A DNA stretch of 64,000 nt from Minisyncoccia bacterium (GTDB lineage Bacteria > Patescibacteriota > Minisyncoccia > Phycocordibacterales > Phycocordibacteraceae): the NCBI GenBank assembly GCA_038207395.1, contig JBBQZW010000002.1, positions 69,752 to 133,751 on the forward strand, given 5' to 3'. Shown here one piece after another: positions 8,975 through 50,138 of the stretch (its first letter is position 1; every line of letters starts with the position of its first letter). A program made the translations under genes and the position numbers. Under the pieces are notes generated by a model. That model saw only the letters and a list, made by a program, of their open reading frames with translations. It was not told the origin of the DNA and made no database searches.

Positions 8975-9217
8975 ACTCTTATTATTAGGGGTGTTGATAC
9001 TGGGGAAAGAGCGATATCTCTAGTATATACGGTCAAATTAGGAAGTCCCAATATCTGAAAACATGAAGATTTCCTAAAGATAGCCTGTGGGTAAGATGAG
9101 GGGTTGAAATGGAGGTGGGGAAAACCGTACGGTTTTCCCCACCTTTTCCCAATCTTTATCCCTCCGCTACTCCCACCCTTTCCCCACACTATCCACAGAG
9201 TTATCCTCAACTACTCT
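8975..9217. promoter_or_regulatory. candidate oriC / DnaA-box cluster (dnaA-dnaN intergenic)
   Basis: DnaA-box-like 9-mers TGTGGGTAA (9086-9094), TTATCCCTC (9156-9164), cTATCCACA (9189-9197) and TTATCCTCA (9201-9209). Perfect palindrome GGGGAAAACCG-TA-CGGTTTTCCCC at 9117-9140. AT-rich stretch at 9024-9075. Confidence 0.4.
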
Positions 9218-10597: not shown

Positions 10598-10780
10598 AAG
10601 AAGAAGGTGAACTAAAAATGAAATTCACGATGCGTTATGCGACTCATTTCATCAGTTCTTCCAGGTACGGTGTGCATCGTAGTCGTAGTATACGCGTGTA
10701 CGCGCGCGTGGGAAGAGGCATTACATTCTTCTGTATTTGTTGCGTGTTCTGCGTCAACCTGGTACTATCCTGTGGACAAC

Positions 10781-10933
10781 ATGCCTAAGCGAACCTACCA
10801 GCCAAAAAAGCGCAAACGCGCTCGAACACACGGATTTCTTGCCCGAACTGCCACTCCTGGCGGTCGTCGCGTGATACTTGCTCGTCGCCGTAAAGGACGC
10901 GCAAGCCTCACGGTCTCCAAAAAAGTCCGTTAA
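10781..10933 (+). CDS. rpmH: 50S ribosomal protein L34
   Basis: [40 protein letters not shown] is the L34 consensus. ATG at 10781; the track ORF is an upstream extension. One-mismatch DnaA box TGTGGACAA immediately upstream (10771-10779). Confidence 0.9.
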
Positions 10934-10965
10934 TTCAATTCCCTAGAGGGAATTAGTGAAATTAT

Positions 10966-11286
10966 ATGCTTCCGCGAACCCTCCGACTCCCCAGGCAGGG
11001 ATTTGAGAACACACGAGGACTCCGTCGTATGACGAGTCCTCATTTCTCTATATCATATGGGTATATTGAGGGATTTGGTGGCTCGGCTATTATTGTTCCC
11101 AAAAAGGCAGTAAAAGGAGCTGTGACACGGCACCTGCTTAAGCGTCGTGTACGTGCTCTTATTCAGCCCTGGAGCAGCTCAGAACAAGTACTTATTATTA
11201 CTGCTCGCTCAGGATCTGCAGACCTTACTCGAGTTGCGCTAAAAGACGAGCTTTCACAAGCACTTACCGCTATACTGTCCACATAA
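10966..11286 (+). CDS. rnpA: ribonuclease P protein component
   Basis: Position after rpmH. Basic about 106 aa protein with an IVPKKAVKGAVTRHLLKRRVR motif typical of RnpA. Confidence 0.8.
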   Translation: MLPRTLRLPRQGFENTRGLRRMTSPHFSISYGYIEGFGGSAIIVPKKAVKGAVTRHLLKRRVRALIQPWSSSEQVLIITARSGSADLTRVALKDELSQALTAILST

Positions 11287-11287
11287 C

Positions 11288-12031
11288 ATGATCCTTTCCT
11301 TCTTTCACACGTACCTATACGTACCAATCTATAACCTCCTCATTTTCTTTGTAGGAATCGTACCAAATGGAGATGTCGGTATTGCTGTTATCGTTGTAAC
11401 GATAGTGGTAAAAATTATCATTACTCCCTTTTCCATTAGCGCAGTCAAAACACAGCGTCGAATGAAGTTCCTTGAGCCCCAAATGAAGGTGATTAAGGAA
11501 AAATATAAGGATAATAAGGAAAAACAGGCACTCGAAACGCTTGCTCTTTATAAAAATAACGGCGTTAAACCGTTTTCAAGTATCTTCGCGAGCTTCCTTC
11601 AACTCCCGGTAATTATCTCTCTCTATCTTGTTTTTAGTCACGAACACCTGGTTGCACCAAACGTATCGATTATCTATAGCTTTATCTCGTTCCCTGCGCA
11701 TATTTCACCGCTCTTCCTTGGCCTTTTCTCAACAACAGGCCACACGATAATTCTTACGGGAATTGCAGTTATTGCTCAGTTCCTCCAGGCATACCTTACT
11801 ATCCCTGTTCCTGAAAAACCCGAGAACGGGGTTGCTACAGGTGCAGAAGAATTCTCACGCGCTCTTTCACTGCAGTCTCGCTTCATTCTCCCTGTTATTA
11901 TCGGTGTTGTTGCGTACGCCTCAGGCGCACTCGCTCTCTACTTTATTACCAGTAGTATCATTGGAATCATCCAAGAGTATTACGTGCGATACGAACTCCG
12001 TTACCTTGAAATGCCTAAAGCGGTTAGTTAA
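11288..12031 (+). CDS. yidC: membrane protein insertase YidC (short form)
   Basis: rpmH-rnpA-yidC synteny. Multi-TM 247 aa with the conserved YidC/Oxa1 helix-1 region and the KEKQ...LYK..GVNP-like motif (ALYKNNGVKPFSS). Confidence 0.8.
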   Translation: MILSFFHTYLYVPIYNLLIFFVGIVPNGDVGIAVIVVTIVVKIIITPFSISAVKTQRRMKFLEPQMKVIKEKYKDNKEKQALETLALYKNNGVKPFSSIFASFLQLPVIISLYLVFSHEHLVAPNVSIIYSFISFPAHISPLFLGLFSTTGHTIILTGIAVIAQFLQAYLTIPVPEKPENGVATGAEEFSRALSLQSRFILPVIIGVVAYASGALALYFITSSIIGIIQEYYVRYELRYLEMPKAVS

Positions 12032-13332
12032 AGGTCGTAACTAAAGAGTGCGCCTGAGTGCTTGTCTGAAAATACAAGAATATCTTCTGAAGGGTCGAGA
12101 GTAAGGTTTACCGCATCTACCTGTATCTTCCCTATTTGATTAGGGTCAAGGACAAGGGTTGCTACGCGTTGAGTTAGATCAATCTTCCAAATACGGTCAG
12201 TAAAAGTAATAGCCCCTTGGTACCAATCATCAGGAAGATTGCCTGAGAGGTTTGTAGGTACTGCGCAGTACACCGAAAGACCATCTGCAGTCCACACACA
12301 CTTCTCACTTAATGTTGATACTGGAAGTGCTGTACTTGCGCGAGTCGCGACATTTAATACGCGGAGCTGGTACACTCCCCCACTCGTGTAGCTATATATA
12401 AGTGACGACCCGTTCAAACTGGGAAGTACTGATAGTCCTCGGAACGCTCCAAGCACACGGCTAAAGTTTCCGGTGGTGCGATTGATTTGAAATGCATACC
12501 CGTCAATTTGAGATGACGGCTTGTTGTTTGCGAAAAGATCTCCCGTGCTTGGGTGCACCGTAATGGCTGACAGAAGCGAAGAGAATAATGTGCGGGAATT
12601 AGACCCGTCAGCACGTGAGAGTGTCCCTACCGACCCTGTACTGCCAGAGAAGAGGGTAAACAGCGTACTTGAACCAACAACGTCTACTTGTGCAAGATCA
12701 TTCTCAAGCAAATACCCGTCTCCCCCGTTTGCGTTAAGTGCGTAGGTGTTAACTGACTCTTTACCTGCACTGGTTGCTAAAAATTGAGCGTATGCGCGCG
12801 TTCCGTCAGGAGTCCACGAAGCTCGCTGGATTCCCGGAAGAGTCTTATTTGAAATACGAGTAAGGGTTCGCGCGTGTGCAATGTATGAGTATACGTTTCC
12901 GCTCGCGCGATCAATGAACCGGACCTCAACGTCAGGGGTAGTTGCGGGAGTAGATATTGGGGTGTTTGTTGATTTTTTAACGGTAGTTGTAGTGGTTGCG
13001 GTTGATGTGGCAGAAAGAGAAACCGTCTCAACGTTTGTGGTAATTGCTGCAGCGTCAGGATTTGGAAGTTGAATAGGAAGCGCTACAGAACCATGTGCAA
13101 CCGGTCCATCAGTAATTTTCACAAAGCGCGGTGCAAGGGTGGTACCGGCATTCTGTATGATGCCATCAGTCGGTAAATCAGTACTTGGTGCAGAAGCACC
13201 ACTTCCTGTATTTGCGAACGGATCCCCCACTGAAAGGTTTGCACTCTTAGGTGCAAAGAATAGGAAGTACACACCAATCAAAATCCCAATCAGAACTACT
13301 ATTCCTGCGATGATAATGAAGAGACGTTTCAT
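12028..13332 (-). CDS. membrane-anchored Thr-rich beta-rich protein (last gene of the T4SS-like cluster)
   Basis: N-terminal TM (FIIIAGIVVLIGILIGVYFLFF), poly-Thr linker, long beta-rich ectodomain. Only 10 nt from the next gene. Confidence 0.4.
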   Translation of the reverse strand: MKRLFIIIAGIVVLIGILIGVYFLFFAPKSANLSVGDPFANTGSGASAPSTDLPTDGIIQNAGTTLAPRFVKITDGPVAHGSVALPIQLPNPDAAAITTNVETVSLSATSTATTTTTVKKSTNTPISTPATTPDVEVRFIDRASGNVYSYIAHARTLTRISNKTLPGIQRASWTPDGTRAYAQFLATSAGKESVNTYALNANGGDGYLLENDLAQVDVVGSSTLFTLFSGSTGSVGTLSRADGSNSRTLFSSLLSAITVHPSTGDLFANNKPSSQIDGYAFQINRTTGNFSRVLGAFRGLSVLPSLNGSSLIYSYTSGGVYQLRVLNVATRASTALPVSTLSEKCVWTADGLSVYCAVPTNLSGNLPDDWYQGAITFTDRIWKIDLTQRVATLVLDPNQIGKIQVDAVNLTLDPSEDILVFSDKHSGALFSYDL

Positions 13333-13342
13333 AGAGATATCA

Positions 13343-14341
13343 CTACGAGTTTGGACATAGTGGAAGCTTAGAGAGTGTTGTGTAACTACTTGCTGGAAGA
13401 GGTTTTGCTAACGTTGCACTCGTTAATTTAGAATCGTCAGTATTGCAATTATTACCCAAAGCACGAAGACCAGGTTGTCTACTAAACGTGTTTGCCGCCG
13501 AAGTACAGGTGGATTTTGAAGTATAGTGAGCGGTATTTTCAATAGTACACTTTTCACCTGTATCATAATTAGTGTCTTGGTAATAGTAATCAACGGTAAA
13601 GTTCCCCTTATCAGTTGTAGGATCGGAGATTGGTTTTGATGGCGTCTGGTCATTTGCCGGATCATACCCACAACATGTGTTCTTGGTATCAGAAATTGCA
13701 CAGCAGGTATCTGAATAATGAGCCCAACCCTTACCTATCGCGCTACAAACCGACGCGGCATCTTTTCCTGAAGGAAGAGGAACAGTTTGTTTTTTAACTA
13801 TAGAACTACATACCTTAGCTTCGGAACTTGTCGAAGGACTACTTACATCGTAATTTGAATTCAACTTGGTTTGAAGCGCACTTACGTCGAGATTAAGTTT
13901 TAGGATATCAGGGTTAATGATGCCAAATACTATCGTTGGGGCCAAAATAAGCACCAAACCCAAAATTGCATTTTGAATACGAGATTTTGCCTTCTCATTT
14001 GAGGTGACGCTCCCTGAGCTTGTCATGATCTGCACACCGGCAACCATTATCATGATCACGGCCAATACCGCACCAGCACCAATCATTATTTTGTAGAGCT
14101 GATTAAGAAAGTTCGGAAGAGTACTTGCTGATACCGCATCCTTAATTCCAGGAAGAGCGGTGAGTGGTTCGAATTTTATTGGTTGAGCACTATCCGAAGC
14201 AGTCGCCGATACTCCTGGCGTGGCTGCAGTGGCTTTATTGTTATTTTGAGCAAAAGTGGTAAATGGAGTGCTGATCAGAAATAGAAAAGCAAAAACTACC
14301 GCTACCTTAGCTGTTAGTCGTAAAAGAGTGCTAGTTTTCAT
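13343..14341 (-). CDS. VirB2/TrbC-like pilin-type protein with Cys-rich C-terminal extension
   Basis: Signal peptide, then two hydrophobic helices (IMIGAGAVLAVIMIMVAGVQI / AILGLVLILAPTIVFGII) in the VirB2/TrbC arrangement. An extension of about 180 aa holds 11 Cys. Confidence 0.4.
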   Translation of the reverse strand: MKTSTLLRLTAKVAVVFAFLFLISTPFTTFAQNNNKATAATPGVSATASDSAQPIKFEPLTALPGIKDAVSASTLPNFLNQLYKIMIGAGAVLAVIMIMVAGVQIMTSSGSVTSNEKAKSRIQNAILGLVLILAPTIVFGIINPDILKLNLDVSALQTKLNSNYDVSSPSTSSEAKVCSSIVKKQTVPLPSGKDAASVCSAIGKGWAHYSDTCCAISDTKNTCCGYDPANDQTPSKPISDPTTDKGNFTVDYYYQDTNYDTGEKCTIENTAHYTSKSTCTSAANTFSRQPGLRALGNNCNTDDSKLTSATLAKPLPASSYTTLSKLPLCPNS

Positions 14342-14343
14342 AA

Positions 14344-15330
14344 TTAAAAGCCAAAGAGATTCGATACCGCCTTACCAAATGTTACGGACAGTGAACTGTT
14401 TGCAGATTGGCCAAGAGACCCAGACGAGCCCGATATATTCAGAATAGCAGTTCCTTGTCCGTTTCCTGCGGGACGAACGGTAATATCTTGCCCGGTCTGG
14501 CTTGGAGAACCATTTACCTCCCAGGTCAGAGATGGAATGCTGGTGAAGTAGTACGGAACTGCTCGATACGTAGCTTCTGCGCTTGTTAATGCGACTGCAC
14601 GGGTAAGAGCGGTATCATACCGAACCCCAAGTAATGGATCATTTTCGTATATACGAATTAGTGGGTCACGGGGAGCTATAAAGACTGAAGCTTGACCAAC
14701 AACGCTGCTGTCTTGGCTTGATACGGTGACTGACAGTGTCGTGTTGCGGTATCGAATAGGGGCGGTGGCAGTAAGTACTGATTTGCCAATACCTGAGGAA
14801 CTTTGAAGAATTTGCTCACCATTTTTCCACGTATATACAAGATTCTGCGAAGGAATCTGAACACCCTTTGACGTTCGCAGGTCAGGTACTGCAATAATGC
14901 GGAGACGTCCCTCGCTACCAATTAACGCAGCCCCCTCATAGAAAGGATGGCTCGTTGAGGTTGGCTCAAGAACGAGCGCGACATCAGCAGGATGAATACT
15001 AATGGATTTACTATACGTCTGGCCATTATTTACTGCAGTAACTTTTATGTTCGTAACCGTGCCAGGCCCACCAACGGCAATACTCGCACTTTCTGAACCA
15101 GTCCCCTTCTGTACAACTACACCATTTACTGAAAATGTAATGGTACTAGCTGACAGATCAATAAGCGTACTCTCTGGGGTAATGGTAACGATTTGATATG
15201 GACGGGGGTAATCAGGATCGATTGTGATAGTTAACGGATCGGTTGTTCCGATTTGAGCATGAGTTACATATACCGCACTCAAGCCAAAAAGAAGGAGGGA
15301 TGTAAAAAGTGTTTTACGAAGCACAGACAT
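14344..15330 (-). CDS. secreted beta-rich protein (T4SS-like cluster)
   Basis: Signal peptide MSVLRKTLFTSLLLFGLSAVYVTHAQ. Ser/Thr-rich, Ig-like composition. Confidence 0.4.
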   Translation of the reverse strand: MSVLRKTLFTSLLLFGLSAVYVTHAQIGTTDPLTITIDPDYPRPYQIVTITPESTLIDLSASTITFSVNGVVVQKGTGSESASIAVGGPGTVTNIKVTAVNNGQTYSKSISIHPADVALVLEPTSTSHPFYEGAALIGSEGRLRIIAVPDLRTSKGVQIPSQNLVYTWKNGEQILQSSSGIGKSVLTATAPIRYRNTTLSVTVSSQDSSVVGQASVFIAPRDPLIRIYENDPLLGVRYDTALTRAVALTSAEATYRAVPYYFTSIPSLTWEVNGSPSQTGQDITVRPAGNGQGTAILNISGSSGSLGQSANSSLSVTFGKAVSNLFGF

Positions 15331-15393
15331 GCCTACAGTATAGCGCCCCTCAGGATATCTTTAGCCACCACACGCCGTACATATGGGTATTAG

Positions 15394-15852
15394 TTATACT
15401 GCCTCCTGGAATTCTTCCCTTGAATTAGTATCGTTTGTCGCAGTGGGTGGTGGTATTTTTTGAGCACCAAAACGTATTCTGTTTGAAGTAGAGGAAGGAA
15501 TCGTCTTCTTTTTTGTTTCACCCATACGACTACCAACAATAACGCCAATAACGCCAGCAGTAATACCTGGAAGTCCATCTAAGAAAGGAACAAGCTCAAG
15601 TATGGTTGATCCAAATACTGAAAAGCTTTTTAAACCAGCTCCTTTCCCACTGAAATAATTAACCTTGCAAAGCGCAAACCAAACACCAAAAATACAGATT
15701 GAAAGGAATGCGATGAATATTGAGAGTGGCGCTGTAACTACCAGTAAGGTTAGAAGGAACTGGAAACCGTCCAAAAGAAGGGCCAGCCCGATCATAAAAG
15801 CGGCAGTGATATTTGAAATCTTGTGTGGAACAGTACCTGATGACTCTGCCAT
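15394..15852 (-). CDS. small polytopic membrane protein (T4SS-like cluster)
   Basis: 152 aa with 3-4 predicted TM helices. Confidence 0.4.
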   Translation of the reverse strand: MAESSGTVPHKISNITAAFMIGLALLLDGFQFLLTLLVVTAPLSIFIAFLSICIFGVWFALCKVNYFSGKGAGLKSFSVFGSTILELVPFLDGLPGITAGVIGVIVGSRMGETKKKTIPSSTSNRIRFGAQKIPPPTATNDTNSREEFQEAV

Positions 15853-15862
15853 ACCAGACTAG

Positions 15863-17686
15863 TTATGAATCCTTCTCCGTCTCAATTCGCTGTTTTTCTC
15901 GTTTTATTGCCAAAAGCTGTGAGGGGTCAGAGGTAATAATTTGATCTTCGGTATACGATGCAACAATTTTAATTGCCACATGCTTAAGACCTGCAAAGAA
16001 GAGTCCCTCGCCCACTCCTGATTCGAGGAGAAGAAATTTCTCCTCGTCGGTAAGGTTAAATGTTTCCTTGAGAACTTCGATAGTCGTTGGAGATTGCTTC
16101 AGAAGAAGTTGGATAGAAGAGTTGGTGAGAATGGGACGTCCGTATGGGCTGCGCAAGAAGTCTTCAACGTCTTGGGTGACGGTAGCGAGTCCGAGGAAAT
16201 ACTTACGACCACGCTTTGCAAGACCAAATAAGAACGATGCTGTGTCTTCAGACTTCATCATCCACCACGCCTCATCAATGATTAAGAGGCGCTTCTTAAG
16301 CTCTGCCCGAACGGCGTTCCAGATGAAGTGCGTAACAATGTACATTGCCACTGGTTTAAGCTCATCCTCCATGTCACGCACAGAAAACACAATGAATTGC
16401 TTGTTAATATCGACGTTAGTGGGACGATTAAGGAAACCTGACCAGGTACCACGAGTGTATTTCGTAAGACGTGTCACGAGTGACTGTGAGCCTTCCATAC
16501 CTGAAAGTACATTCTCAAAGTCAGAGAGAAGTGGAGGCTCCATACCATTAAAGTTTGAATCCCCCGTAATGTCTTTCAAGGCATATGTTTCAGAAATGGC
16601 ACGGTCAATGATTGCATCCTCTTCGGGAGTAAGACCACCAAGCATGATACGGAAGAGTCCGACCAGGTTAATAATGTTAGAGCGAAGAATGTCAGTGGGT
16701 TCCTCATCTTCTTTGACCATAGGAAGGTCAAAAGGATTGATATGGTGTTCGCTCGAAAGAGAGATGTTGAACATTCGACCGCCGGTCGCTTGTGCCAGGT
16801 ATTCGTATTCACGCTCTGGGTCGATAACAATAACGTCTGTGTCAAACATGAGTGAGCGTAGAATCTCAAGCTTAACGGCATATGACTTACCTGAACCAGA
16901 CTTTGCAAACACTACCGAGTTATAGTTTTCAAGCGAGAAACGGTCAAAAAGAATAAGTGATGCGTTATGACGATTAATCCCGTAGAGAATACCGCGGTCA
17001 CTTGAGAGGTCGAATGATACAAAAGGGAAAATACTTGATAATGGGGATGAATTGAGCTTGTTATGGACTTCAAGTTCGTCAGTGGCAATAGGAAGTGTAG
17101 AGCGGAAGCCTTGTGCTTGCTCGAAGAGTGCTGGTTTTGTATACACTAACTTCGAATCAAGAATTCCTCTGACATCACCCTCAATCTTGTCGAGTTCTTC
17201 CTTTGAGCTTGCGTAGAGCGTCATGTATAGACCAACGTCAAATAGACGTTCCTGCGCTTGCTGGAGATTATCACGAAGGGTTTCCAGATCCTGATATGCG
17301 GTGTCGAGCATAGGATCACGCACCAATCCTTTCGCTTCCCTGTCTGAAATCTGACTTTGCACTTCTGCCACCTTACGCTGAAAATTCTTTAACGCGTCCG
17401 CTGTATCTACGGGGTGAACAAAGATGGAAACATCAAATACCTTATCAAGGTTAATAATTGGGGTGAACCAACTGTCTGTGAGATAGCGGGGGTATGAAAT
17501 AGTGTAGAACGTACGGGAAACCTTCTCCCCGAGCTCTATTTCTTTTGACCCAACCTTAAGTGCCGCTGGCGCTATTGCATCAGCAAGCTCAAGCTTCCCT
17601 GCGGCATATATATCTTTAGGTAGTACGGGGGCAATCTTAGGCCCGTCATCGTTGTTCCCGCGGTTTAAAAAATCTAAAAGTGCCAT
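15863..17686 (-). CDS. VirB4/TrbE/CagE-family type IV secretion ATPase (ATPase portion)
   Basis: Walker A VVFAKSGSGKSY, Walker B RLLIIDEAWWMM, TVTQDVEDF motif. YTISYPRYL-type N-terminal region characteristic of VirB4/PrgJ/TcpF. Confidence 0.8.
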   Translation of the reverse strand: MALLDFLNRGNNDDGPKIAPVLPKDIYAAGKLELADAIAPAALKVGSKEIELGEKVSRTFYTISYPRYLTDSWFTPIINLDKVFDVSIFVHPVDTADALKNFQRKVAEVQSQISDREAKGLVRDPMLDTAYQDLETLRDNLQQAQERLFDVGLYMTLYASSKEELDKIEGDVRGILDSKLVYTKPALFEQAQGFRSTLPIATDELEVHNKLNSSPLSSIFPFVSFDLSSDRGILYGINRHNASLILFDRFSLENYNSVVFAKSGSGKSYAVKLEILRSLMFDTDVIVIDPEREYEYLAQATGGRMFNISLSSEHHINPFDLPMVKEDEEPTDILRSNIINLVGLFRIMLGGLTPEEDAIIDRAISETYALKDITGDSNFNGMEPPLLSDFENVLSGMEGSQSLVTRLTKYTRGTWSGFLNRPTNVDINKQFIVFSVRDMEDELKPVAMYIVTHFIWNAVRAELKKRLLIIDEAWWMMKSEDTASFLFGLAKRGRKYFLGLATVTQDVEDFLRSPYGRPILTNSSIQLLLKQSPTTIEVLKETFNLTDEEKFLLLESGVGEGLFFAGLKHVAIKIVASYTEDQIITSDPSQLLAIKREKQRIETEKDS

Positions 17687-17698
17687 ATAAAGTAGTAG

Positions 17699-18331
17699 CT
17701 ATTGCTGAGTATACGGTATAGGGTTCTCCATATCCCCCAAATTAAAAGATCGGTACAGAAGCTCGATAATCTCTTCTGTGCCTAGTGGTACGGCACGAAG
17801 ACCTGAAGAGGCTAACCCTCCTGCCACAAGAGCCATACGTTGCTCGAGCTGAATTCGTGTTTCTTCGAATGATTGATTATCTGCGGCAGTGTTTGCTGAG
17901 CGACTTTTTAAGAAAGATAATCCTCCAGCTGCCTGAGCAATAGAAACCGTTGTGTATGGAACCACCACATAGAAGGTTTTGGTCATAATATCCGCCCCCT
18001 CAATAAAGTTGCGAATGAAGGCAATGTATTCCCGAAGCTGGATGCGCATAAGCTCACTCGTTTGTTTGTCTAAACGCTCCTGGAGCAAATTCAAATACGG
18101 GCGGATATCTGTTTTACGTGAATGTACAACTATCTGTACTGAAAAGTCGAGTGTATTGAGAAAGTTTTGGAACCCGCCGATAATGGCACGTTGCTCGTCT
18201 TCAGACTTAAGTGCAAAGTTAAGAGAAGAACAAGCCATAATACCGCGGTACCCACCATTTTTAAGAATAATCACACCATTGCGAACTTCTTCAACAGGTA
18301 CAAAGTCTTGTGTTGGTTTTGAGCTTGCCAT
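17699..18331 (-). CDS. VirB4 N-terminal domain-like protein (separated from the ATPase ORF by one in-frame TAG)
   Basis: VPVEEVRNGVIILKNGGYRGIMACSSLNFALKSEDEQ...QIVVHSRK matches the VirB4/CagE N-terminal pattern. The stop at 17699-17701 is in frame with the ATG at 17686, only 4 sense codons further on. Confidence 0.5.
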   Translation of the reverse strand: MASSKPTQDFVPVEEVRNGVIILKNGGYRGIMACSSLNFALKSEDEQRAIIGGFQNFLNTLDFSVQIVVHSRKTDIRPYLNLLQERLDKQTSELMRIQLREYIAFIRNFIEGADIMTKTFYVVVPYTTVSIAQAAGGLSFLKSRSANTAADNQSFEETRIQLEQRMALVAGGLASSGLRAVPLGTEEIIELLYRSFNLGDMENPIPYTQQ

Positions 18332-18337
18332 AGAGAG

Positions 18338-18751
18338 TTATTTGGTAGAAATGTTTCGATCCTGAATATCAAGCGAAAGTGCTAAATCATGCAATTTGTT
18401 ACCTGAAAGCGTGAGTTTTTCGCGCACAGGCATCACGGCCTTTATTTGGATCGGTGCTGCATTCTCATCTTTCTTTTCTTTTCGCCACAGATATAACTGG
18501 CTGTTGGTGTAAAAAGAGAATCCCGCGCCTAAAATATCAACAAAGCTCTTATTATTTATCTTATAAAAAGAAAGTGCGATGGCCAATGACATTACCGGGA
18601 TGGCAAGTAGTGCTGCGAATAGGAATGGTAGATAGAGAAAGATAATAACGGAAAGCCCGATACCTCCGCCCATAAATACAAATTGTTTCCAGGTGAGCGG
18701 ACCAAAAATCTTATCTTCAACCTCAATAAACTGTGGTACTTGGTACTCCAT
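18338..18751 (-). CDS. PrgI/VirB3-like two-TM protein
   Basis: 137 aa with two adjacent TM helices after a short N-terminus (PLTWKQFVFMGGGIGLSVIIFLYLPFLFAALLAIPVMSLAIALSFY), as in PrgI/VirB3. Immediately upstream of the VirB4 homologue. Confidence 0.5.
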   Translation of the reverse strand: MEYQVPQFIEVEDKIFGPLTWKQFVFMGGGIGLSVIIFLYLPFLFAALLAIPVMSLAIALSFYKINNKSFVDILGAGFSFYTNSQLYLWRKEKKDENAAPIQIKAVMPVREKLTLSGNKLHDLALSLDIQDRNISTK

Positions 18752-18799
18752 TAGTTAGTAGTATACCGCACGGCTGAAACGAATATTAAAAACCTGTAT

Positions 18800-19345
18800 C
18801 TAATGGCCACCTCCACTAGGTTTCTTTTTTGGGGCGCCCCCTCCTCCTCCCCCACCTGCACCAAGTACTTTTTCCGAACCCGCCTTTAGTCCGCTGAACG
18901 AGAGTGCAATAGTTGCGACAAAAGCACCCAAGGCCAATTTCGCACCTCCCCACAGAAATGTACCGACCTTCTTAAAAAGGCCACCGAATTTTGTTTCTTT
19001 GCCAGAATGTATTGTGGTAGACCCAATTCCTGATGGAGGCTGACCTCCGCTACCCACTTCCGATGGAGTTGTAGTGGGGTTTGATACTGAATTTATAGTT
19101 TCTGTGGTCTGTTTTGGGGTAGATTCAGAACTTGCTGACTCCCTTGGCCCTATTGTCTCAGGAAAACTCTCATCTGAACCTAATGTATCTAAGTGTTCTT
19201 TAATTTCTGCAATCTTTTCCTCAGTGGAAATTACGTCATTAATAATCTCATTATCATTAACTGCCTCAATTTTTTGCACCTCACTCTCAGTCATTGGAGT
19301 AAGGTTTTCTGAAGCACTTGCATTAATTTTTCGTAAAGATTCCAT
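18800..19345 (-). CDS. hypothetical protein with acidic N-terminus, C-terminal TM and Gly-rich tail
   Basis: Part of the co-directional cluster. No recognisable family. Confidence 0.4.
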   Translation of the reverse strand: MESLRKINASASENLTPMTESEVQKIEAVNDNEIINDVISTEEKIAEIKEHLDTLGSDESFPETIGPRESASSESTPKQTTETINSVSNPTTTPSEVGSGGQPPSGIGSTTIHSGKETKFGGLFKKVGTFLWGGAKLALGAFVATIALSFSGLKAGSEKVLGAGGGGGGGAPKKKPSGGGH

Positions 19346-19356
19346 AGTACGCTTTC

Positions 19357-20160
19357 TTATATAGTATTCCGATACGGGTCAGTTTGGTATGGAGTATCAG
19401 CTTGCACGGGGCGCAACGGTCGTTCTTCTAGAGGTTTTGACTCGGTGATAATAGGTTTAATTTCTGGAGTTGAAAACACTGGATACTGAACTGGTGGTGG
19501 TGACGTAAATGGAACTGAAGAAGTCTGAAATGAGCGAGCAGGAGTTGTCTGCATAGGATGCTGTATTGCTGCCATATCACTACTCATTGTTCTAATGGCA
19601 GGAAATTCCATAGCTGGAGGGTTAGAAACAATCGATGGGATTTCTCGATTTATAAGATTGTAAGCGGGTGGCGGCACGGGGATAGGTTTAATTTCTTGTC
19701 GTGCTTCAACACTTAATACTGGTACCTGAGGCGCAGGCGGAACACTCGTTTGGGTGGGAGGTGCCTGTGGTGGTGTGGGAGCGATGTTAAAAGAAGGATC
19801 ATACTCAGCCTCAGGCTCATCCTCTTCAGGGGTATTCAACGTATCGGCTCCCTCTCGGATTCGCTTTTGTAGTGGTTGAAAGATCTCTTCATTAACTTTT
19901 TTAACAATACCCGTCGCATCATTTGCTCCGATCCCGAGATCAAGAAGGCCTTGATAAAATGTGGCCGGATCAACTAAGCCGAGTAACATAAATCCAAGGT
20001 CTTCAGCAATTTTACCGGTCACATCAACATGCAAGTTGTAGCTAGACTGAACGCTTTTTATCACTTGTATAGTTGCATCGCTTCCCATCGCCTCACGAAC
20101 AATGCGGGGTGCGGTTTTATAGGCTTGAATAAATTGATCCCTGTTCAACAATTGAGGCAT
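19357..20160 (-). CDS. proline-rich hypothetical protein
   Basis: 267 aa. Second half is Pro-rich (PTPPQAPPTQTSVPPAPQVP...). Confidence 0.4.
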   Translation of the reverse strand: MPQLLNRDQFIQAYKTAPRIVREAMGSDATIQVIKSVQSSYNLHVDVTGKIAEDLGFMLLGLVDPATFYQGLLDLGIGANDATGIVKKVNEEIFQPLQKRIREGADTLNTPEEDEPEAEYDPSFNIAPTPPQAPPTQTSVPPAPQVPVLSVEARQEIKPIPVPPPAYNLINREIPSIVSNPPAMEFPAIRTMSSDMAAIQHPMQTTPARSFQTSSVPFTSPPPVQYPVFSTPEIKPIITESKPLEERPLRPVQADTPYQTDPYRNTI

Positions 20161-20161
20161 G

Positions 20162-22459
20162 CTATGACCAGTATGCCATACCCGCAGGGCTTGTTAAATA
20201 ATCAACAGTAGTTTTGGTGCCATACTTTTCAATTTGAGCCTTAATTCTCTTTGCTGCTGAATCATCAATTTCATTACGCTCCTGTATTGCTGCAAGTATT
20301 TTTGGCGTTAGGACCCGAGCAGCTGCTTCTGATTCCAACACCTCTGATTTAAGTCGCGCTGCTTGTTTAGGGTTCAGTTTTGCTATCTTTGCTACAGCCG
20401 CAGCCACATCAGTTGGGCTTGTAGCTTCTGCAAACGCAGTATTTGTTAGTTCAACAGGATCAAACTGTCGTACTTTGCGGGCAACACCCGGGCTTAGTTT
20501 CCCACCCCTAAGAAGATCGTCTCGTTGTGCGTTAGTGAGAGAGCTTGTTATAAAATCATCAGTAAGGAGGGTTGAAGGACTATTTTCTAGGTCTTTAGCG
20601 GAGTATTTTTTAATACGATCCTTGATGGTTTTCTGTGCAACACCCTTCTCGGCTGGTGTTGTAGTCGTGCTTGTGATAATTGCTTGTTGGTCACGTATAT
20701 CCTTAAAGCGAGCTTCTTTAATTACTCCCTGCTGCTGTACGGTAAATGCTCCCCCATCTTTTACTAATGCAGCAAACTTCTCTGGAGACAGGTTCTGTAC
20801 AAGTGCATCAAGATCTTTCCCTGACTTCTTCATTAGATCTAGTTCTTCTAACTCCTTGGTGCTTAAACGCTCAAGAATTTCCGCGACACGGTTATCCTTT
20901 GAAGTGCTTTTAGGTAGCGATAACGCAGAATCAAGTTCTGACCTAAGATTTGCCTTGCGTCCAATCTCTCCAAACACCTTATCTCGAGCCTCTTTCTCAG
21001 CCTTCTTCTCCTTAAAGGATGCTCCGCTACCAAAACGAGCATTTTGACCCGCCTTAAGAGTTCCTGATATTGCCTTATCAATAGGGCTATTAGAGATAAA
21101 GTTACGTACTCCCTTAGGTGCCTTTCCGACCAAAGATTCATATTTCTTCTGTGCATATACGCTACCCTTGCCGATTGTCGACCTCCCTGCGAAACCACCC
21201 GCAGCACCATACGTACCTAAAACTATTTTTTTAGAAAAACCTATTGCTCCTGCGGCTCCTGCTGCTCCCAAACTTTTGGCAGCCACAAGCGAAGCAACTA
21301 AGAAGCCAATGACAATCGTAAAGATCATTATAGTTCCCATTGCTGAAGCATCAGGGCTCGTAATTGCACCAGCTAAACCAACAGCGGTTGTGCCCGAACC
21401 GCCCGTGATGAAACCATCAGTAATTTTTAAACTTATAAAAAGAAGAAGGAATAAAACGGGTGCAAAGAATGCTTGAGAAATAAGCTTGCTCCACCAGTCA
21501 TTTGCAAATCTGCGAAGTGGAGGAATTGCCATACCTGCAAATCCAATTGGAGCAGAAACCATAAGAAAACTTAAAACAACAACTCGAATAACTAACATAA
21601 TTGCAGCCGCAAACATAACGATGGCACCAATAGTTGAAAAAAGAGCCAAACCTATAAAGGTCACTGCCTCAACACCAAGGTTTCCGTTTACCTTAAAGAG
21701 TGACGCAAGACCGGTGGACTGCATTATGTGACCCGCTATACCGTAATCAACAATACACTTCGCGTCCTGTTCAGAAATCCCGACAGCACTAAATATACCT
21801 CCGCTAATATCTAAGCAAGGGTCAGTATTTGCTTGAGAATAAAATACAGAACTAAGTGCATTTGAAGTGTCTATAACAGCCTCTGCAGCAAACAAACTAA
21901 AGTTCATAAGAACAGCGAAGATAAGTAGCTGAGGTATTGCTTTTCGGGTAGGAAAACTATGGAGATCCAATATTGTTGCGAGACCCATAAAAATAAAACC
22001 AAACAAAAGAAGCATGTTTCCTATATCACGCATGATCCCCCATGCGAGCAAGAGACCAGGGGAATTACCGATTAAATTACCAAATTGAAAAACTGTTTTA
22101 ATTACTACCCAGTTCAAAAGTGCTCCGGCTACTCCCAATAAAAGATTTGCAAACGTTAATATAAATCCCGCAACAGTCTTTAAAAGACATGAACCTAACG
22201 TAAAGAAACTATCACAACTGTTAGTTGCGTTGCCCGCTGGGGGAGGTGTGCTATTGGAGGCTGGTTTCGCATTTGGATCAGCGCTTCCTAAATCAGCTTG
22301 TCCGGCTGAAGTACTTGCAACATTGGTCGGAGAAGAGGTGCTAACTTTTTGAGGTGCAGAAGATTGGGCACTAGCGCTCGAAGGTTGATACGCGAAAAAT
22401 AAAATGAGTAAGAAAATACCACCTACTACTGAAAGACTTCTGCGCGTAAATCTCGCCAT
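20162..22459 (-). CDS. VirB6/TrbL-like polytopic membrane protein with long charged C-terminal domain
   Basis: Signal peptide plus Ser/Pro-rich stretch, then at least 6 TM helices over about 300 aa, then a roughly 330 aa hydrophilic tail. This architecture is typical of VirB6/TrbL-type channel proteins. Confidence 0.45.
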   Translation of the reverse strand: MARFTRRSLSVVGGIFLLILFFAYQPSSASAQSSAPQKVSTSSPTNVASTSAGQADLGSADPNAKPASNSTPPPAGNATNSCDSFFTLGSCLLKTVAGFILTFANLLLGVAGALLNWVVIKTVFQFGNLIGNSPGLLLAWGIMRDIGNMLLLFGFIFMGLATILDLHSFPTRKAIPQLLIFAVLMNFSLFAAEAVIDTSNALSSVFYSQANTDPCLDISGGIFSAVGISEQDAKCIVDYGIAGHIMQSTGLASLFKVNGNLGVEAVTFIGLALFSTIGAIVMFAAAIMLVIRVVVLSFLMVSAPIGFAGMAIPPLRRFANDWWSKLISQAFFAPVLFLLLFISLKITDGFITGGSGTTAVGLAGAITSPDASAMGTIMIFTIVIGFLVASLVAAKSLGAAGAAGAIGFSKKIVLGTYGAAGGFAGRSTIGKGSVYAQKKYESLVGKAPKGVRNFISNSPIDKAISGTLKAGQNARFGSGASFKEKKAEKEARDKVFGEIGRKANLRSELDSALSLPKSTSKDNRVAEILERLSTKELEELDLMKKSGKDLDALVQNLSPEKFAALVKDGGAFTVQQQGVIKEARFKDIRDQQAIITSTTTTPAEKGVAQKTIKDRIKKYSAKDLENSPSTLLTDDFITSSLTNAQRDDLLRGGKLSPGVARKVRQFDPVELTNTAFAEATSPTDVAAAVAKIAKLNPKQAARLKSEVLESEAAARVLTPKILAAIQERNEIDDSAAKRIKAQIEKYGTKTTVDYLTSPAGMAYWS

Positions 22460-22462
22460 AGG

Positions 22463-23938
22463 TTATGTACCGTTTGAACTTGTAACACCACAATTTTTTG
22501 AAAGAGTTATCATCTTGTCATATAGATTTTTTGAACCCGATGTATCCTGACTCTGTATACCTGCCTCAGCTATCTCTGATGCATTAGGGATTTCTGGTGA
22601 TGAGAGATATGACTGGTAGTTAGCAAGTGCGGAGGTTATTACGGTGCCCTTAGAAACCGAGGTGCTTTGGGAAGCTCCCTCAACTTCACTTTTAATTGAT
22701 GCAATTTTTGTTAGCGCCGCATCCCCTTTTGCCACACCAGCTGTAGCTTGATCAATTACAGCAGAGACATCAGGTCGTACACCGCAGGTAGTTTGAGCAT
22801 TAGTTGCTGCGCTTAAAATTTTCTGCCAGTTATCACGGAAAGAAGATACGTTTGTCTCGTCATTTTTGATGTTTTGAATAACTCCACTAGCAAGACTTGA
22901 GTTAACCGCATCATACTGAGTTGGGCTCGTTGCTGCTTCCAAAGGAGAACGTCCTCCGCCAGCAGAAGGCTGTGATGCACCAAGAAGTCCTCCTGCTCCC
23001 AGAACTTGGTTTACTAACTGTCCCAGCAACGCTCCAACAATTTCGTTGATAGAGTCAGCAAGTTCAAGCTGGCGAATTCCCGAGCCAAGACTGTTCTCAA
23101 GCTGACTCTCAATAACTGAGCCAGGGGTTCGTACTGCGTTGAAGAGACATTTCTCTGTCTTAGACAGTGCTACAGAAGCATCACCACCAGAGGTAGACTT
23201 ATTACAACTACCTCTCCATGGAAGAAATCCCTTACCCCACCCAAGCTCAGCTTTGCGCTGCTGTGCTGCAGAATCAATCTGCGCAAAGAGCTGATTGCTT
23301 GCAAGCTGGTATGCGCCGAATGGATTATTCGCAGGATTCTGACTTGCTGATAGAAAGGCACTAATACCTCCTTGATTGAAGTCACCATTTAAGAATGCTT
23401 TAGGGTCCTTGCTTTGCTGATCTAGAGTGTAGTTCAGACCCCAACTACTAGTAGTACGATAATACTCTTCACGAAGCTTCTGGCTTATTTGATCTTGAAA
23501 AGGAGACTTTATATCAAATCCAGTTGCACTAACAACAGTATTATTTAGGTTATTAATAAAATCATCTGCTATAGCGTCTCCTAAGTATTGAAGATTACTC
23601 CTCAAATCACTTACAAAAGAAGGCGATCCGCTAAAGCCCGAATTAATCCAATTCACCGTACTTCGTGTCAGAGATTGGATAGTTAGTTTCGCAACAGTCC
23701 ATGCAAGACCGTTCAATGCGTTTAAAATAACGGTTTGAGTGACTGTACTTGCACCTGTTGCAACGACTCCCGCAACAACGGCAGGGTTAATTTCAAATGA
23801 GAGACCTCCAAACTGAGCGTGTGCTTTAGGTACTGAAACAATACTAAAAGGTGTGTATGACGCAGTAATTGCAATAACAAGACTGATTGCAACAGCTCTG
23901 ACTGAAATATTCTTTAGCCGGTTAGTTTTGTAGATCAT
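22463..23938 (-). CDS. secreted hypothetical protein (T4SS-like cluster)
   Basis: Signal-anchor at the N-terminus. 491 aa, Ser/Ala/Gln-rich. Confidence 0.4.
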   Translation of the reverse strand: MIYKTNRLKNISVRAVAISLVIAITASYTPFSIVSVPKAHAQFGGLSFEINPAVVAGVVATGASTVTQTVILNALNGLAWTVAKLTIQSLTRSTVNWINSGFSGSPSFVSDLRSNLQYLGDAIADDFINNLNNTVVSATGFDIKSPFQDQISQKLREEYYRTTSSWGLNYTLDQQSKDPKAFLNGDFNQGGISAFLSASQNPANNPFGAYQLASNQLFAQIDSAAQQRKAELGWGKGFLPWRGSCNKSTSGGDASVALSKTEKCLFNAVRTPGSVIESQLENSLGSGIRQLELADSINEIVGALLGQLVNQVLGAGGLLGASQPSAGGGRSPLEAATSPTQYDAVNSSLASGVIQNIKNDETNVSSFRDNWQKILSAATNAQTTCGVRPDVSAVIDQATAGVAKGDAALTKIASIKSEVEGASQSTSVSKGTVITSALANYQSYLSSPEIPNASEIAEAGIQSQDTSGSKNLYDKMITLSKNCGVTSSNGT

Positions 23939-24942
23939 TGTGTTTCAGCTGAGCGTGCAATACTCACAATCACTGACCCAGCAGTTCCGGCAGCAGGCTC
24001 CCCGCTTGAGAGGATGACTGTAGCGATATCTTTAAATCCTTTTACCACCAAAACACTAGATGGTTGGAAGTTAGACAACGCACCCATGAACGCCAAAGGA
24101 TCTTTTTCATAGGTTACCGCTGAAGCAGATGCTTTGTGTAGCTGATCAAATCCTCTAACAAGCTCAAGATGCTGATTCGCAAGTTGAGGAGGAATTCTAA
24201 GATCAAGAAGATCCTTAGTTATTGATGCATATGATTCTGAAAGCCTTTTAATCTTTGGGCGTGCTGACTCATCATTTTTCTCAATCAATGCTTCAAGAAG
24301 CGGGATAGGTTGATTCGCGTCAGCTGGAACATCGTTTGTTCGAAGTACTCCTTCAACTGAATCAGCATACGCAGTTATAGAAACACTTGGGTCTGTGTGT
24401 AGTGAAATGGTTGTGTAGGTTGAACCGTATAGAGCAGATGCTTTAACGGTGAACTCCCCTAAAAGCTTAAGAGCAAGTGCTTGCTGCTGCTCTGGAGTGA
24501 GAGGCTGACCCCTGCTCGCATCAAGATATTTCTGGAGAAACTCCTGAGAGAACTGTTCGGTAATACTTCCAGGAGCTGGATCAACCCCAGGAAGATCTGC
24601 GGCAGTAAGGGTGGTGGTTCCTTGTTCGCCGCTTGGGAGCTGTGAGGCTGCAGTTTGAGGGGTTAGTTTCCCTTCCTTTGCTGCCTGACCGTCAGGAATG
24701 CCGAATGAATTACTTATTGCTTTGTTTGGGTCAGTGCCATACAAAGCTTCCTGCCAATCAGGAAGACCGTCGCCATCAGTATCTTTTGCAGCGTACGCCT
24801 TAAGGAGTTCTTCAGTACTGCCAGCGTTTGCAAATTTCTGACTAAAGAATGAAGGTCCGGACAGTAAGTACGCACTACTTACCATGAGGAGTGCGAGTAA
24901 TGAAGCAGCACTAATGCGAAGTGTACGTTCGGGGATCTTCAT
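23935..24942 (-). CDS. secreted protein with thrombospondin-type-3-like Ca-binding motif (first gene of the cluster)
   Basis: Signal peptide. DTDGDGLPDWQEALYGTDP matches the DxDxDGxxDxxE TSP3/OmpA-type calcium-binding repeat. Confidence 0.4.
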   Translation of the reverse strand: MKIPERTLRISAASLLALLMVSSAYLLSGPSFFSQKFANAGSTEELLKAYAAKDTDGDGLPDWQEALYGTDPNKAISNSFGIPDGQAAKEGKLTPQTAASQLPSGEQGTTTLTAADLPGVDPAPGSITEQFSQEFLQKYLDASRGQPLTPEQQQALALKLLGEFTVKASALYGSTYTTISLHTDPSVSITAYADSVEGVLRTNDVPADANQPIPLLEALIEKNDESARPKIKRLSESYASITKDLLDLRIPPQLANQHLELVRGFDQLHKASASAVTYEKDPLAFMGALSNFQPSSVLVVKGFKDIATVILSSGEPAAGTAGSVIVSIARSAETQ

Positions 24943-25028: not shown

Positions 25029-25811
25029 TTATAAAAGCGCTGACGCTAGTTTTTTCCACTGAGGGATAGTGACATCTTCAGACCGAGTATTTGGGGTGAG
25101 CCCAATCTCACTCATCGCAGCAATAATATCTGCGGATGATGCGCAAACCTCAAGGTTTTTGGCTAATCTCTTTCGTTTATGAGCAAATCCGGCTTTAAGG
25201 AGAGTAAAAAAGTATTCCTCAGCCATACGGGACGGAAATGATTCGCTAGAAATAGCGCGAATGGCAAGGACAGCAGAGTCCACGGAAGGCGCGGGGCGGA
25301 ACGCCCCGCGCGGCACGGTAAAGCAGTATTCTGGTGTTCCATATACTTTCACCGAAACTGAAAGAATACTCTCCTTCCCTTTATTGCGTGCAATACGCTC
25401 AGCAACTTCTTTTTGTACGAGCACGGTCATGCTTTTAGGTTTGTGCTCTGCACTAAGGAACTGGCGTATAATCTCACCGGTTATGTAGTATGGAATATTT
25501 GCGACCACATGGTATTCGCCCTCAATGCTTGTACTCTCCACATTCCGGATATCTTCGTGAAGAATATCTAACTTCCCTTCCCTAATTTCAGCTGCAAATG
25601 TTTCGCGAAGTTCAGGAGCAAGTGCATCATCTGCTTCAACCGCAATCACCTTCTTCGCGCTCTCAAGAAGTGCGCGCGTCAGCATGCCAGTACCCGGTCC
25701 AATCTCAAGTACTACGGCATCCTCCGGAAGTGCAGCAGCAAGCACAATACGCTCTGCAGTCTGCGGGTGCATTAAAAAGTTTTGTCCGAGGGATTTCTTT
25801 GCGAAAGGCAT
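25029..25811 (-). CDS. rsmA: 16S rRNA (adenine1518/1519-N6)-dimethyltransferase
   Basis: KSLGQNFL ... VLEIGPGTGMLT SAM-binding motif. 260 aa. Confidence 0.85.
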   Translation of the reverse strand: MPFAKKSLGQNFLMHPQTAERIVLAAALPEDAVVLEIGPGTGMLTRALLESAKKVIAVEADDALAPELRETFAAEIREGKLDILHEDIRNVESTSIEGEYHVVANIPYYITGEIIRQFLSAEHKPKSMTVLVQKEVAERIARNKGKESILSVSVKVYGTPEYCFTVPRGAFRPAPSVDSAVLAIRAISSESFPSRMAEEYFFTLLKAGFAHKRKRLAKNLEVCASSADIIAAMSEIGLTPNTRSEDVTIPQWKKLASALL

Positions 25812-27854: not shown

Positions 27855-28048
27855 AAGTATGCTTCATGCAATCTCCACATTTAGTACCCGTGTCAAGATT
27901 GACCTCATCCTCTCCCAAGCTATACTTTCCTAGTTGATTGATAGACCGTAACTCAAGAAAAGGCTTATGTAAGCCTTTTTTGTATTCTGAAGATTCGCTG
28001 AAGACCCATCACCCTCGTATTTCAAAGCACCCTCATTCCTCCGACGTC

Positions 28049-34160: not shown

Positions 34161-34427
34161 TTACTTCTTAAGGCCCAGTTTCTTCACGACTGCGCTGTAC
34201 TGACGCTTGTTGCTCTTTTCGAGGTAACGAAGGTGAGCGCGACGATCAGCAACCATCTGAAGAAGACCGCGACGTGAGTGAAAATCTTTCTGATTTTTCT
34301 TCAAGTGACGGGTAAGCTCTTCGATTTTACGGCTAAGAATAGCGATCTGAACCGAAGCTGAGCCGGTGTCTAGATCGTGCATCGCGGTGTTTTTAATTAC
34401 CGCTGTTTTAACTCGTTTTGTAAGCAT
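34161..34427 (-). CDS. rpsO: 30S ribosomal protein S15
   Basis: ...GSASVQIAILSRKIEELTRHLKKNQKDFHSRRGLLQMVADRRAHLRYL is the S15 consensus. 88 aa from the Met at 34427. Confidence 0.85.
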   Translation of the reverse strand: MLTKRVKTAVIKNTAMHDLDTGSASVQIAILSRKIEELTRHLKKNQKDFHSRRGLLQMVADRRAHLRYLEKSNKRQYSAVVKKLGLKK

Positions 34428-34534
34428 TGGCCTTAGATTACCACACCTTGCTAAATTGCGCAAGTGTTCCCTAGTTCGCAGGTCATCTCTACGAAAGCAA
34501 ATATTGTACGAAGTGAGGTGCTACACTATTTGTA

Positions 34535-38520: not shown

Positions 38521-38642
38521 TACGGACGTGGTGGGGGACAGAATTGTGTATAACTGGGGATAAACCTGTTAGTAGTGGGGATAAAGGACAGTAACTTTTT
38601 CAGAAATAGTTTAGAAAGTTCTTAATATAACCTTATATATAC

Positions 38643-47983: not shown

Positions 47984-48020
47984 CACGAGGAGAAGGTAAT
48001 CGCATGCTAAAATTTTCATA

Positions 48021-49235: not shown

Positions 49236-49254
49236 CAGGGTGTATACTGGCGTA

Positions 49255-50091: not shown

Positions 50092-50138
50092 CTTTCGTGT
50101 GTGCGGTATCATACGAAGGTATGCATACGAGCGCCCGA

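Follow-up and report, generated by a model that had tools for sequence, protein, structure and literature searches.

What kind of machine is encoded by a cluster of genes resembling a type IV secretion system (T4SS) that lies close to dnaA on the chromosome of a Minisyncoccia bacterium, and does it belong to a conjugative element or to the chromosome itself? The cluster is found in a 64,000-nucleotide stretch of contig JBBQZW010000002.1 (assembly GCA_038207395.1), which is referred to here as the window and in whose numbering all positions are given. We put a probability of roughly 85% on the locus being a vertically inherited, origin-proximal chromosomal T4SS of Paceibacteria (Parcubacteria/Candidate Phyla Radiation, CPR) and a member of the Patescibacteria clade within the monoderm MPF-FATA systems. 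The composition of such loci and their position near dnaA, ksgA and rnpA are already published, and the system is of a known kind. What novelty is left concerns the conserved unannotated accessory proteins, a variable Cys-rich extension of the pilin, and a modular link to ComEC and RecJ genes in some relatives.

The original prediction, made from the sequence of the window, had described twelve minus-strand genes at positions 12028-24942 downstream of ksgA, and the span is exact. It is taken up by twelve co-directional open reading frames (ORFs), named g1 to g12 from the ksgA side, and g1 starts 86 nt after the end of ksgA. From g1 to g12 they encode proteins of 335, 491, 765, 267, 181, 137, 210, 607, 152, 328, 332, and 434 aa, separated by intergenic distances of -4, 3, 1, 11, 48, 6, 12, 10, 63, 2, and 10 nt. 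The genes are as tightly packed as described, with a single 4-nt overlap and gaps of 1-63 nt elsewhere in place of the several overlaps and 2-60 nt gaps originally reported. The twelve ORFs are real genes and not chance ORFs because, with the exception of g5, each of them has homologues in other species at loci that are syntenic.

The predicted VirB4/TrbE-type ATPase is g8 (15863..17686, 607 aa; like all twelve genes on the minus strand). The NCBIfam model of the CD1110-family VirB4 proteins is matched with E=3e-114 and 382.9 bits (cut-off 325) over model positions 183-733 of 752, and the protein is without the first ~180 residues of full-length monoderm VirB4. This Bacillota family is the best model for g8, ahead of the TraC-F and VirB4_CagE models. 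Pfam P-loop_TraG (E=6.9e-26), AAA_10 and DUF87 are matched over their gathering scores, and in the PDB the matches include 4AG5, the solved VirB4 domain of Thermoanaerobacter (E=7e-44), and R388 TrwK (E=1e-7). The Walker motifs are intact (A, AKSGSGKS, residues 261-268; B, LLIIDEAW, from residue 467). Pfam CagE_TrbE_VirB, one of the hidden Markov models (HMMs) that the original prediction had named for a check, gave no match to g8 at E<=1; the matches came from other VirB4 models.

The N-terminal domain of VirB4 is found in g7 (17699..18331, 210 aa), a soluble TrsD/TraD-like protein. It had been counted among eight proteins without a recognizable family; the description holds for the other seven (g1, g2, g4, g5, g9, g10, and g12). 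g7 matches the NCBIfam models VirB4_plasma (mycoplasma VirB4; positions 101-234, E=6.9e-9) and CD1110-family VirB4 (positions 2-166, E=1.4e-7), and it matches TrsD with E=3.4e-4 and 20.5 bits, which misses the curated TrsD cut-off of 200 bits. A profile search of the PDB with g7 gave no match. When placed on pCDC3875 of C. botulinum, g7 maps to 8431-8955 and g8 to 9001-10635, back to back within a single VirB4 ORF (8365-10758). VirB4 is encoded here as two polypeptides, g7 being the N-terminal domain and g8 the remainder including the ATPase core. The split is not an assembly error, because g7 stands as its own ORF in 78-79 of 80 related loci. The possibility that g7 is a paralogue of the N-terminal part of g8 was rejected, as hhalign gave a probability of 0.4% when the g7 family was aligned with the first 250 aa of the g8 family; the absence of detectable homology between the two fits with g7 being the VirB4 segment that is absent from g8.

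Two further core components were recognized by their own sequences. The small membrane protein g6 (18338..18751, 137 aa) belongs to the PrgI/VirB3 family (Pfam PrgI, E=2.6e-10, 41.1 bits, gathering score 27). It had been placed immediately upstream of VirB4; the identity stands and the adjacency does not, with g7 intervening, and in 75 of the 80 loci g6 was detected, each time two genes upstream of VirB4. The expected VirB2/TrbC-like pilin is g11 (13343..14341, 332 aa), which has a signal peptide and a two-helix hairpin at aa 73-141. It matches the CPR-type Pfam T4SS_pilin model (PF18895) with E=1.6e-10 and 41.3 bits (gathering score 26.6), and more weakly TrbC (E=0.006) and the NCBIfam Mbov_0395 pilin-like model (E=2.3e-6). 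The gene sits three genes downstream of g8 and is present in a single copy in the window.

A recent study by Quinonero-Coronel et al. (2025, PMC12102498) determined that VirB4 is present in 2417 of 3035 Patescibacteria genomes and that most of these proteins form a clade nested in monoderm MPF-FATA. The neighbors of these VirB4 genes encode TrsD, PrgI/VirB3, VirB6, and VirB2-like (PF18895) proteins, a relaxase is missing in nearly all cases, a coupling protein is seldom found next to them, and in Paceibacteria the locus adjoins dnaA, dnaN, rnpA, ksgA, and rpmH (PMC12102498). The locus described here shares with this clade, which includes the locus SEML1_0006-0019 of Southlakia epibionticum, the joint encoding of VirB4, TrsD, PrgI/VirB3, a VirB6-like protein, and a PF18895 pilin, a chromosomal location, and the lack of a relaxase and of a nearby coupling protein. 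It also shares the published position in Paceibacteria, being flanked by dnaN (7874-8974), dnaA (9218-10597), and rpmH-rnpA-yidC (10637-12031) on one side and by ksgA (25029-25811) at the g1 side. It differs in having one pilin gene, compared with arrays of 2-11 pilin genes found mainly in Saccharimonadia and Microgenomatia, and in the long Cys-rich C-terminal extension of that pilin, which is unlike the reported systems.

The locus was compared with 80 loci, one genome per species, all from metagenome-assembled genomes of Patescibacteria (Paceibacteria), across which VirB4 is 73-92% identical. The 120 best homologues of g8 are 85-95% identical and those that are named all come from Parcubacteria/Paceibacterota/Patescibacteria; for g2 and g10, as for g8, the closest relatives in sequence come without exception from Parcubacteria/Paceibacterota. 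The order ksgA-g1-g2-g3-(g4)-(g5)-g6-g7-g8-(g9)-g10-g11-g12-yidC-rnpA-dnaA-dnaN recurs in the 80 species. Orthologues were detected in 41 (g1), 43 (g2), 47-49 (g3), 50 (g4), 75 (g6), 79 (g7), 56 (g9), 79 (g10), 62-66 (g11), and 65 (g12) of the 80 loci, and where no orthologue was detected, this was often because the contig ends there. Within the origin-proximal block VirB4 has the highest conservation, above DnaA, DnaN, UvrD, and KsgA: against locus L001 the identities are 92% for VirB4, 84% for DnaA, 80% for DnaN, and 79% for UvrD, and against locus L045 they are 76% for VirB4 and 54% for DnaA.

These observations bear on whether the cluster could belong to, or be left over from, an integrated conjugative element (ICE) whose relaxase and coupling protein lie outside it. 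Elsewhere, homologues of VirB4, PrgI, VirB6, and TrsD are characteristic of conjugative plasmids and ICEs of Gram-positive bacteria, and a tyrosine recombinase gene is present at 34366-35442. That gene is ~9.4 kb away behind housekeeping genes, however, and no relaxase or coupling protein was found in the 12 kb on one side and the 39 kb on the other side of the cluster. The flanking genes are dnaN, dnaA, rpmH, rnpA, yidC, ksgA, and uvrD, the same insertion-free arrangement is seen in the 80 species, the GC content (0.443, compared with 0.449 for the rest of the window) is indistinguishable from that of the surroundings, and the constraint on VirB4 is stronger than that on DnaA. Att sites or direct repeats bounding the cluster were not seen, although no specific search for att sites was made, and neither polymorphism between strains in the presence of the cluster nor a cognate relaxase with an oriT was observed. 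We consider the ICE explanation highly improbable and reject it because of the fixed position in 80 species, the native composition, and the lack of a relaxase and a coupling protein in the 64 kb.

The absence of VirD4, relaxase, and VirB11 genes noted in the original prediction was confirmed by a Pfam scan of ~50 ORFs across the whole window, in which no such domain was found. The only P-loop proteins among the ORFs of at least 150 aa are PilB, VirB4, DnaA, ComM, and UvrD. The machine is probably not a conjugation apparatus, because the window has no relaxase, coupling protein, or VirB11. Additionally, the locus is without a recognizable VirB7/9/10 outer-membrane core, VirB5, or nucleic-acid-binding component. 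The description of the locus as a minimal, monoderm-type, non-conjugative T4SS-like machine on a CPR chromosome, accompanied by many secreted or membrane proteins that escape annotation, is upheld by the family searches, the match to 4AG5, the synteny in 80 species, and these absences.

Several points weigh against the assignment to a Paceibacteria T4SS. To our knowledge, there is no experimental evidence for a T4SS of any Paceibacteria. The VirB6/TrbL-like protein g3 (20162..22459, 765 aa) has ~6-8 transmembrane segments at aa 85-394 and a hydrophilic C-terminal half of ~330 aa ('extended VirB6'), and the protein of the window matches Pfam TrbL at a sub-threshold E=0.29. TrbL is recognized in seven of 25 orthologues (best E=1.9e-7) and TrbL_4 in one (E=9e-7), so that this part of the original prediction is supported through the orthologues, and on these profile matches the g3 family is classified as VirB6-like. 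The pilin g11 carries, after the hairpin, a Cys-rich C-terminal extension of ~190 aa (aa 150-332, 10 Cys), which is atypical for polymerizing VirB2 pilins. The hairpin alone is conserved in the orthologues, whose extensions range in length from 12 to 445 aa and often have an even number of Cys residues. We know of no such C-terminal domain on canonical VirB2/TrbC pilins.

The list of parts raises further points of this kind. For the seven proteins without a family, synteny is the evidence that they may be members of the machine. The absence of a coupling protein holds for the 64-kb window, and a distant copy in the genome is possible. No match to VirB8, PrgL, or TraM was found among the 12 proteins with Pfam, NCBIfam, or PDB profiles, and the models of g2 and g10 are not NTF2-like, the fold of VirB8, with g1, g5, g9, and g12 lying outside the modeling. 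There is also no cell-wall hydrolase of the VirB1 type among g1-g12. Lastly, the cluster consists of two separable modules and is not an indivisible unit of twelve genes. In the 55 loci whose upstream flank spans 8 kb or more, g1-g5 lie directly upstream of g6 in 41; in 12, all within the range L015-L033, a PGK-RecJ-RNaseH-ComEC block abuts g6-g12 and g1-g5, including VirB6, are absent there; neither block was found in the remaining 2.

With regard to the hydrolase, a LysM-LysM-Peptidase_M23 peptidoglycan hydrolase is encoded at 27938-29224 on the plus strand (Pfam Peptidase_M23 E=6e-30, LysM E=6e-24), divergently and 3 kb upstream of g1, and all 4 loci with a flank long enough to reach it show the same synteny. 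Patescibacterial VirB1-like proteins bear M23/LysM domains (PMC12102498), and by analogy this protein may be a putative stand-in, a candidate VirB1 analogue. Southlakia has a peptidase/lysozyme within its T4SS locus, whereas here there is none and the M23/LysM gene is 3 kb off.

The locus can be shown to encode a VirB4 motor in two pieces together with VirB3, a platform protein of the VirB6-like kind, a VirB2-like pilin exported by Sec, and five further extracytoplasmic or anchored proteins, and to lack parts for DNA processing. By analogy with the solved Gram-negative T4SSs and with the literature on Saccharibacteria, VirB3, the TrsD-like VirB4 N-terminal domain, and VirB4 would form a membrane-docked ATPase complex. 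This complex would pull the pilin out of the membrane and polymerize it on the VirB6 platform, and the product would be a pilus-like tube that crosses the thin monoderm wall. g10 with its three Ig-like domains, the anchored beta-rich g12, the helical g2, and the TSP3 protein g1 would build or decorate the wall-spanning, host-contact part. Most likely the machine would mediate contact-dependent exchange with a host cell and not conjugation, either by importing host macromolecules or by exporting proteins. In the saccharibacterium Southlakia, a transposon sequencing (Tn-seq) study determined that the T4SS, including the pilins, is essential for epibiotic growth, and that system has no recognizable coupling or relaxase proteins (Wang et al. 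2023, PMC10633639). A review has proposed a pilus conduit (PMC12857230), and a preprint (10.64898/2026.06.21.733656) describes tubular structures at the parasite-host interface that its authors suggest are possibly T4SS pili.

The module in which g6-g12 abut RecJ and ComEC genes raises the question of import. A narrower form of the explanation given above holds that the machine is an importer like archaeal Ced or Helicobacter ComB, through which host DNA, RNA, or other macromolecules feed a nucleotide-auxotrophic bacterium. The absence of a relaxase and a coupling protein from the window is in keeping with this, as is the fact that the VirB3-TrsD-VirB4-pilin module abuts PGK-RecJ-RNaseH-ComEC in 12 of the 55 related species; cluster core and DNA-uptake or DNA-processing genes are thus neighbors in some lineages. 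Import has been proposed for Patescibacteria T4SSs and a linkage to comF, recG, and radA noted in class ABY1 (PMC12102498), and VirB4 has been linked with the parasitic use of host RNA (preprint 10.64898/2026.06.21.733656). The CedB model picks up g8 weakly (E=1.5e-8) and only locally, in the P-loop region, but this match covers ~70 residues of the shared ATPase core and its 33.8 bits are far from the model cut-off of 700. In this window the PGK-to-ComEC block is located at 55575-62449, and ComEC is 35 kb from the locus. In Southlakia, deletion of comEC ended competence and not viability, while the T4SS was still essential (PMC10633639, PMC12857230), and no nucleic-acid-binding component was recognized in the locus. 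We regard the importer as a possibility that is rather doubtful.

Export has also to be considered. Here the machine would be an exporter of proteins or effectors, or a device for contact-dependent delivery of toxins to the host, and some of the secreted proteins without a family would be its substrates. Effector T4SSs without a coupling protein are known, such as Ptl and Brucella VirB (cited in PMC12102498 and PMC12857230), and protein export is one option according to Wang et al. (PMC10633639). The extracytoplasmic proteins evolve fast, as proteins that interact with a host typically do: identities are 20-50% for the membrane and surface partners where they are 75-92% for VirB4. However, g1, g2, g10, g11, and g12 each begin with a signal or an anchor sequence, which implies that they leave the cell by the Sec pathway and not by the T4SS, no toxin or enzyme domain was recognized in any of the 12 proteins with Pfam or NCBIfam, and the stable gene positions over 80 species suit structural parts better than exchangeable effectors. 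We consider the exporter unlikely, even more so than the importer.

The proteins without a family are described here as conserved companions of the Paceibacteria T4SS. g1 (23935..24942, 335 aa) has an N-terminal hydrophobic anchor or signal with a transmembrane-like segment at aa 10-28. The predicted TSP3-like Ca-binding protein proved to be this one, as it contains a single Ca-binding TSP3 repeat at aa 54-75 (Pfam TSP3_bac, E=9e-8, 32.2 bits, above the gathering score of 25); in the PDB the g1 profile matched the TSP3 region alone (7c7r, E=7.9e-5). g2 (22463..23938, 491 aa) has an N-terminal transmembrane helix and a conserved WINSGFxGSPAFV motif. Its model (pLDDT 69.9) is all-alpha with a confident C-terminal three-helix bundle, and a fold search with the model found no specific structural neighbor. 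Foldseek gave a hit of g2 to the TrwJ/VirB5 stalk chain that lacks significance (E=1.5).

g4 (19357..20160, 267 aa) has no signal peptide or transmembrane segment and consists of a conserved N-terminal domain of ~105 aa and a Pro-rich linker (15% Pro overall), with a nearly invariant DPYR(E) motif at the C-terminal end (D261-P262-Y263-R264-E265). g5 (18800..19345, 181 aa) has an acidic N-terminal part, a transmembrane segment at ~aa 130-155, and a tail with Gly runs. It is the fastest-evolving gene of the locus; no sequence homologue was found among the 80 loci, and in other loci its position is filled by Gly-rich ORFs with one transmembrane segment. g9 (15394..15852, 152 aa) has three transmembrane segments, and its family HMM matched 56 loci in the same place after VirB4. 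The g4 and g9 families match nothing in Pfam or the PDB, and NCBIfam and Pfam are empty for g5 as well.

g10 (14344..15330, 328 aa) starts with a signal or anchor helix, which in the model is followed by three tandem Ig/FN3-like beta-sandwich domains, and on this predicted fold it is probably a surface stalk or adhesin-type protein. g12 (12028..13332, 434 aa) is anchored by an N-terminal transmembrane segment, from which a linker rich in Thr and Ser leads to a conserved extracytoplasmic domain of ~300 aa; two Cys residues of this domain are invariant. Two profile searches of the PDB matched TolB at E=0.03-0.045 only, an internal repeat is weak (shift ~46 aa, E=0.006), and no Pfam match was obtained in 25 orthologues; a TolB-like beta-propeller may be guessed at as a candidate fold from these profiles. 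The g12 family is large, with 2954 representatives at 50% identity at E<=1e-3.

It is conceivable, as a tentative suggestion, that the accessory proteins, above all g10, g12, and g2, together with the Cys-rich extension of the pilin form an undescribed extracellular apparatus specific to Paceibacteria, for example a VirB2-type filament decorated with domains or a wall-spanning stalk. Such an apparatus would replace the absent VirB8, VirB5, and adhesin functions and would set host specificity. We know of no equivalent of these accessory parts in any published T4SS. The co-conserved proteins g1, g2, g4, g5, g9, g10, and g12 have not been described in published work on Patescibacteria T4SSs.

Outside the Patescibacteria, the conjugative MPF-FATA systems of Bacillota are among the closest known systems. 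Their VirB4 proteins are 33-35% identical to g8, which passes the CD1110 equivalog cut-off, and the order VirB6 ... PrgI ... VirB4 is the same in pCDC3875 as it is here. In the pGO1-type systems (Trs/Tra, pGO1/pSK41), TrsD is a separate protein that resembles the N-terminus of VirB4, as is g7 (PMC12102498). In contrast to the split protein found here, VirB4 of pCDC3875 is a single ORF of 797 aa. The Bacillota plasmid systems also encode VirD4, an SLT/CHAP hydrolase, and a relaxase, which in pCDC3875 is of the MOBP type, whereas none of these is in the locus, and they are without the Ig-like, propeller-like, and TSP3 partners, most of them also without a pilin.

The closest non-CPR VirB4 in the plasmid collection, at 34% identity and 97% coverage, is encoded on the 898-kb replicon of Pontibacillus sp. 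ALD_SL1 (NZ_CP062975, 351.8-361.4 kb, L082). The Pontibacillus locus resembles the one described here in having a short VirB4 (621 aa), a separate g7 homologue directly upstream of it (E=3.6e-27), a Mbov_0395-type pilin-like gene, and a 779-aa hypothetical protein and a small protein at the VirB6 and VirB3 positions. No relaxase or VirD4 is annotated nearby, and PLSDB types the replicon as non-mobilizable. It differs in that the pilin gene lies upstream of VirB4 and not downstream, an M23 endopeptidase gene directly follows VirB4, tblastn finds no homologues of g1, g2, g10, or g12, and the context consists of flagellar and chemotaxis genes and not of oriC. Relaxase-less, pilin-bearing loci resembling MPF-FATA may not be confined to CPR bacteria. 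Homologues of g7 were also seen on 96 plasmid records, of which 55 are typed as non-mobilizable.

The Gram-negative VirB/D4 systems (MPF-T), such as R388 Trw and Agrobacterium VirB, share with the Paceibacteria locus the VirB4 ATPase core and the roles of VirB3, VirB6, and VirB2, and the concept of a pilus assembled on VirB6 applies to both. The VirB7/9/10 outer-membrane core, VirB5, VirB8, VirB11, and VirD4 of MPF-T have no recognizable counterpart here, where the envelope is monoderm.

The T4SS of Patescibacteria is among the few machines essential for epibiotic life in the sole cultured member tested, and it is conserved across a large and mostly uncultured phylum. The locus described here is a clean and complete Paceibacteria example, in which the conservation of VirB4 exceeds that of DnaA, the ATPase comes in a TrsD-like and a core part, and a fixed, fast-evolving set of surface proteins accompanies the core. 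For structural and genetic work, once co-cultures of Paceibacteria with their hosts are tractable, the main candidates are g10 with its three Ig-like domains, the anchored beta-rich g12, the helical g2, and the pilin with its extension.

The genomic setting of the cluster is that of a chromosome. The ksgA-side flank further carries genes for a UvrD/PcrA helicase, the LysM-M23 peptidase, and ComM, and the remainder of the 64 kb is ordinary chromosome encoding NusA, ClpP, RNase Y, PGK, TIM, RecJ, ComEC, and PilB/PilC, with four tRNAs and a XerC-like recombinase. Promoter-like and terminator-like sites are rarer than in shuffled sequence, and operon boundaries are therefore not assignable. Two ORFs of 497 aa, at 31960-33453 on the minus strand and 52343-53836 on the plus strand, are both without a Pfam match at E<=1e-5. 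DnaA boxes are not above chance in the whole window (19 compared with 15.2 expected), and two clusters of three near-consensus boxes each were observed, one at 9086-9209 in the dnaA-dnaN spacer and one at 38545-38584 near tRNA genes.

A further region (46133-53836 and 59471-61066) encodes PilB (T2SSE) and PilC (T2SSF), followed by a gene for an MscS-type channel (49201-50091). Downstream of the latter are three large and mostly unannotated proteins, one of which has a CarboxypepD_reg domain, and ComEC is found further on. The window thus encodes a second surface-filament system, a type IV pilus, as well as a DNA-uptake channel.

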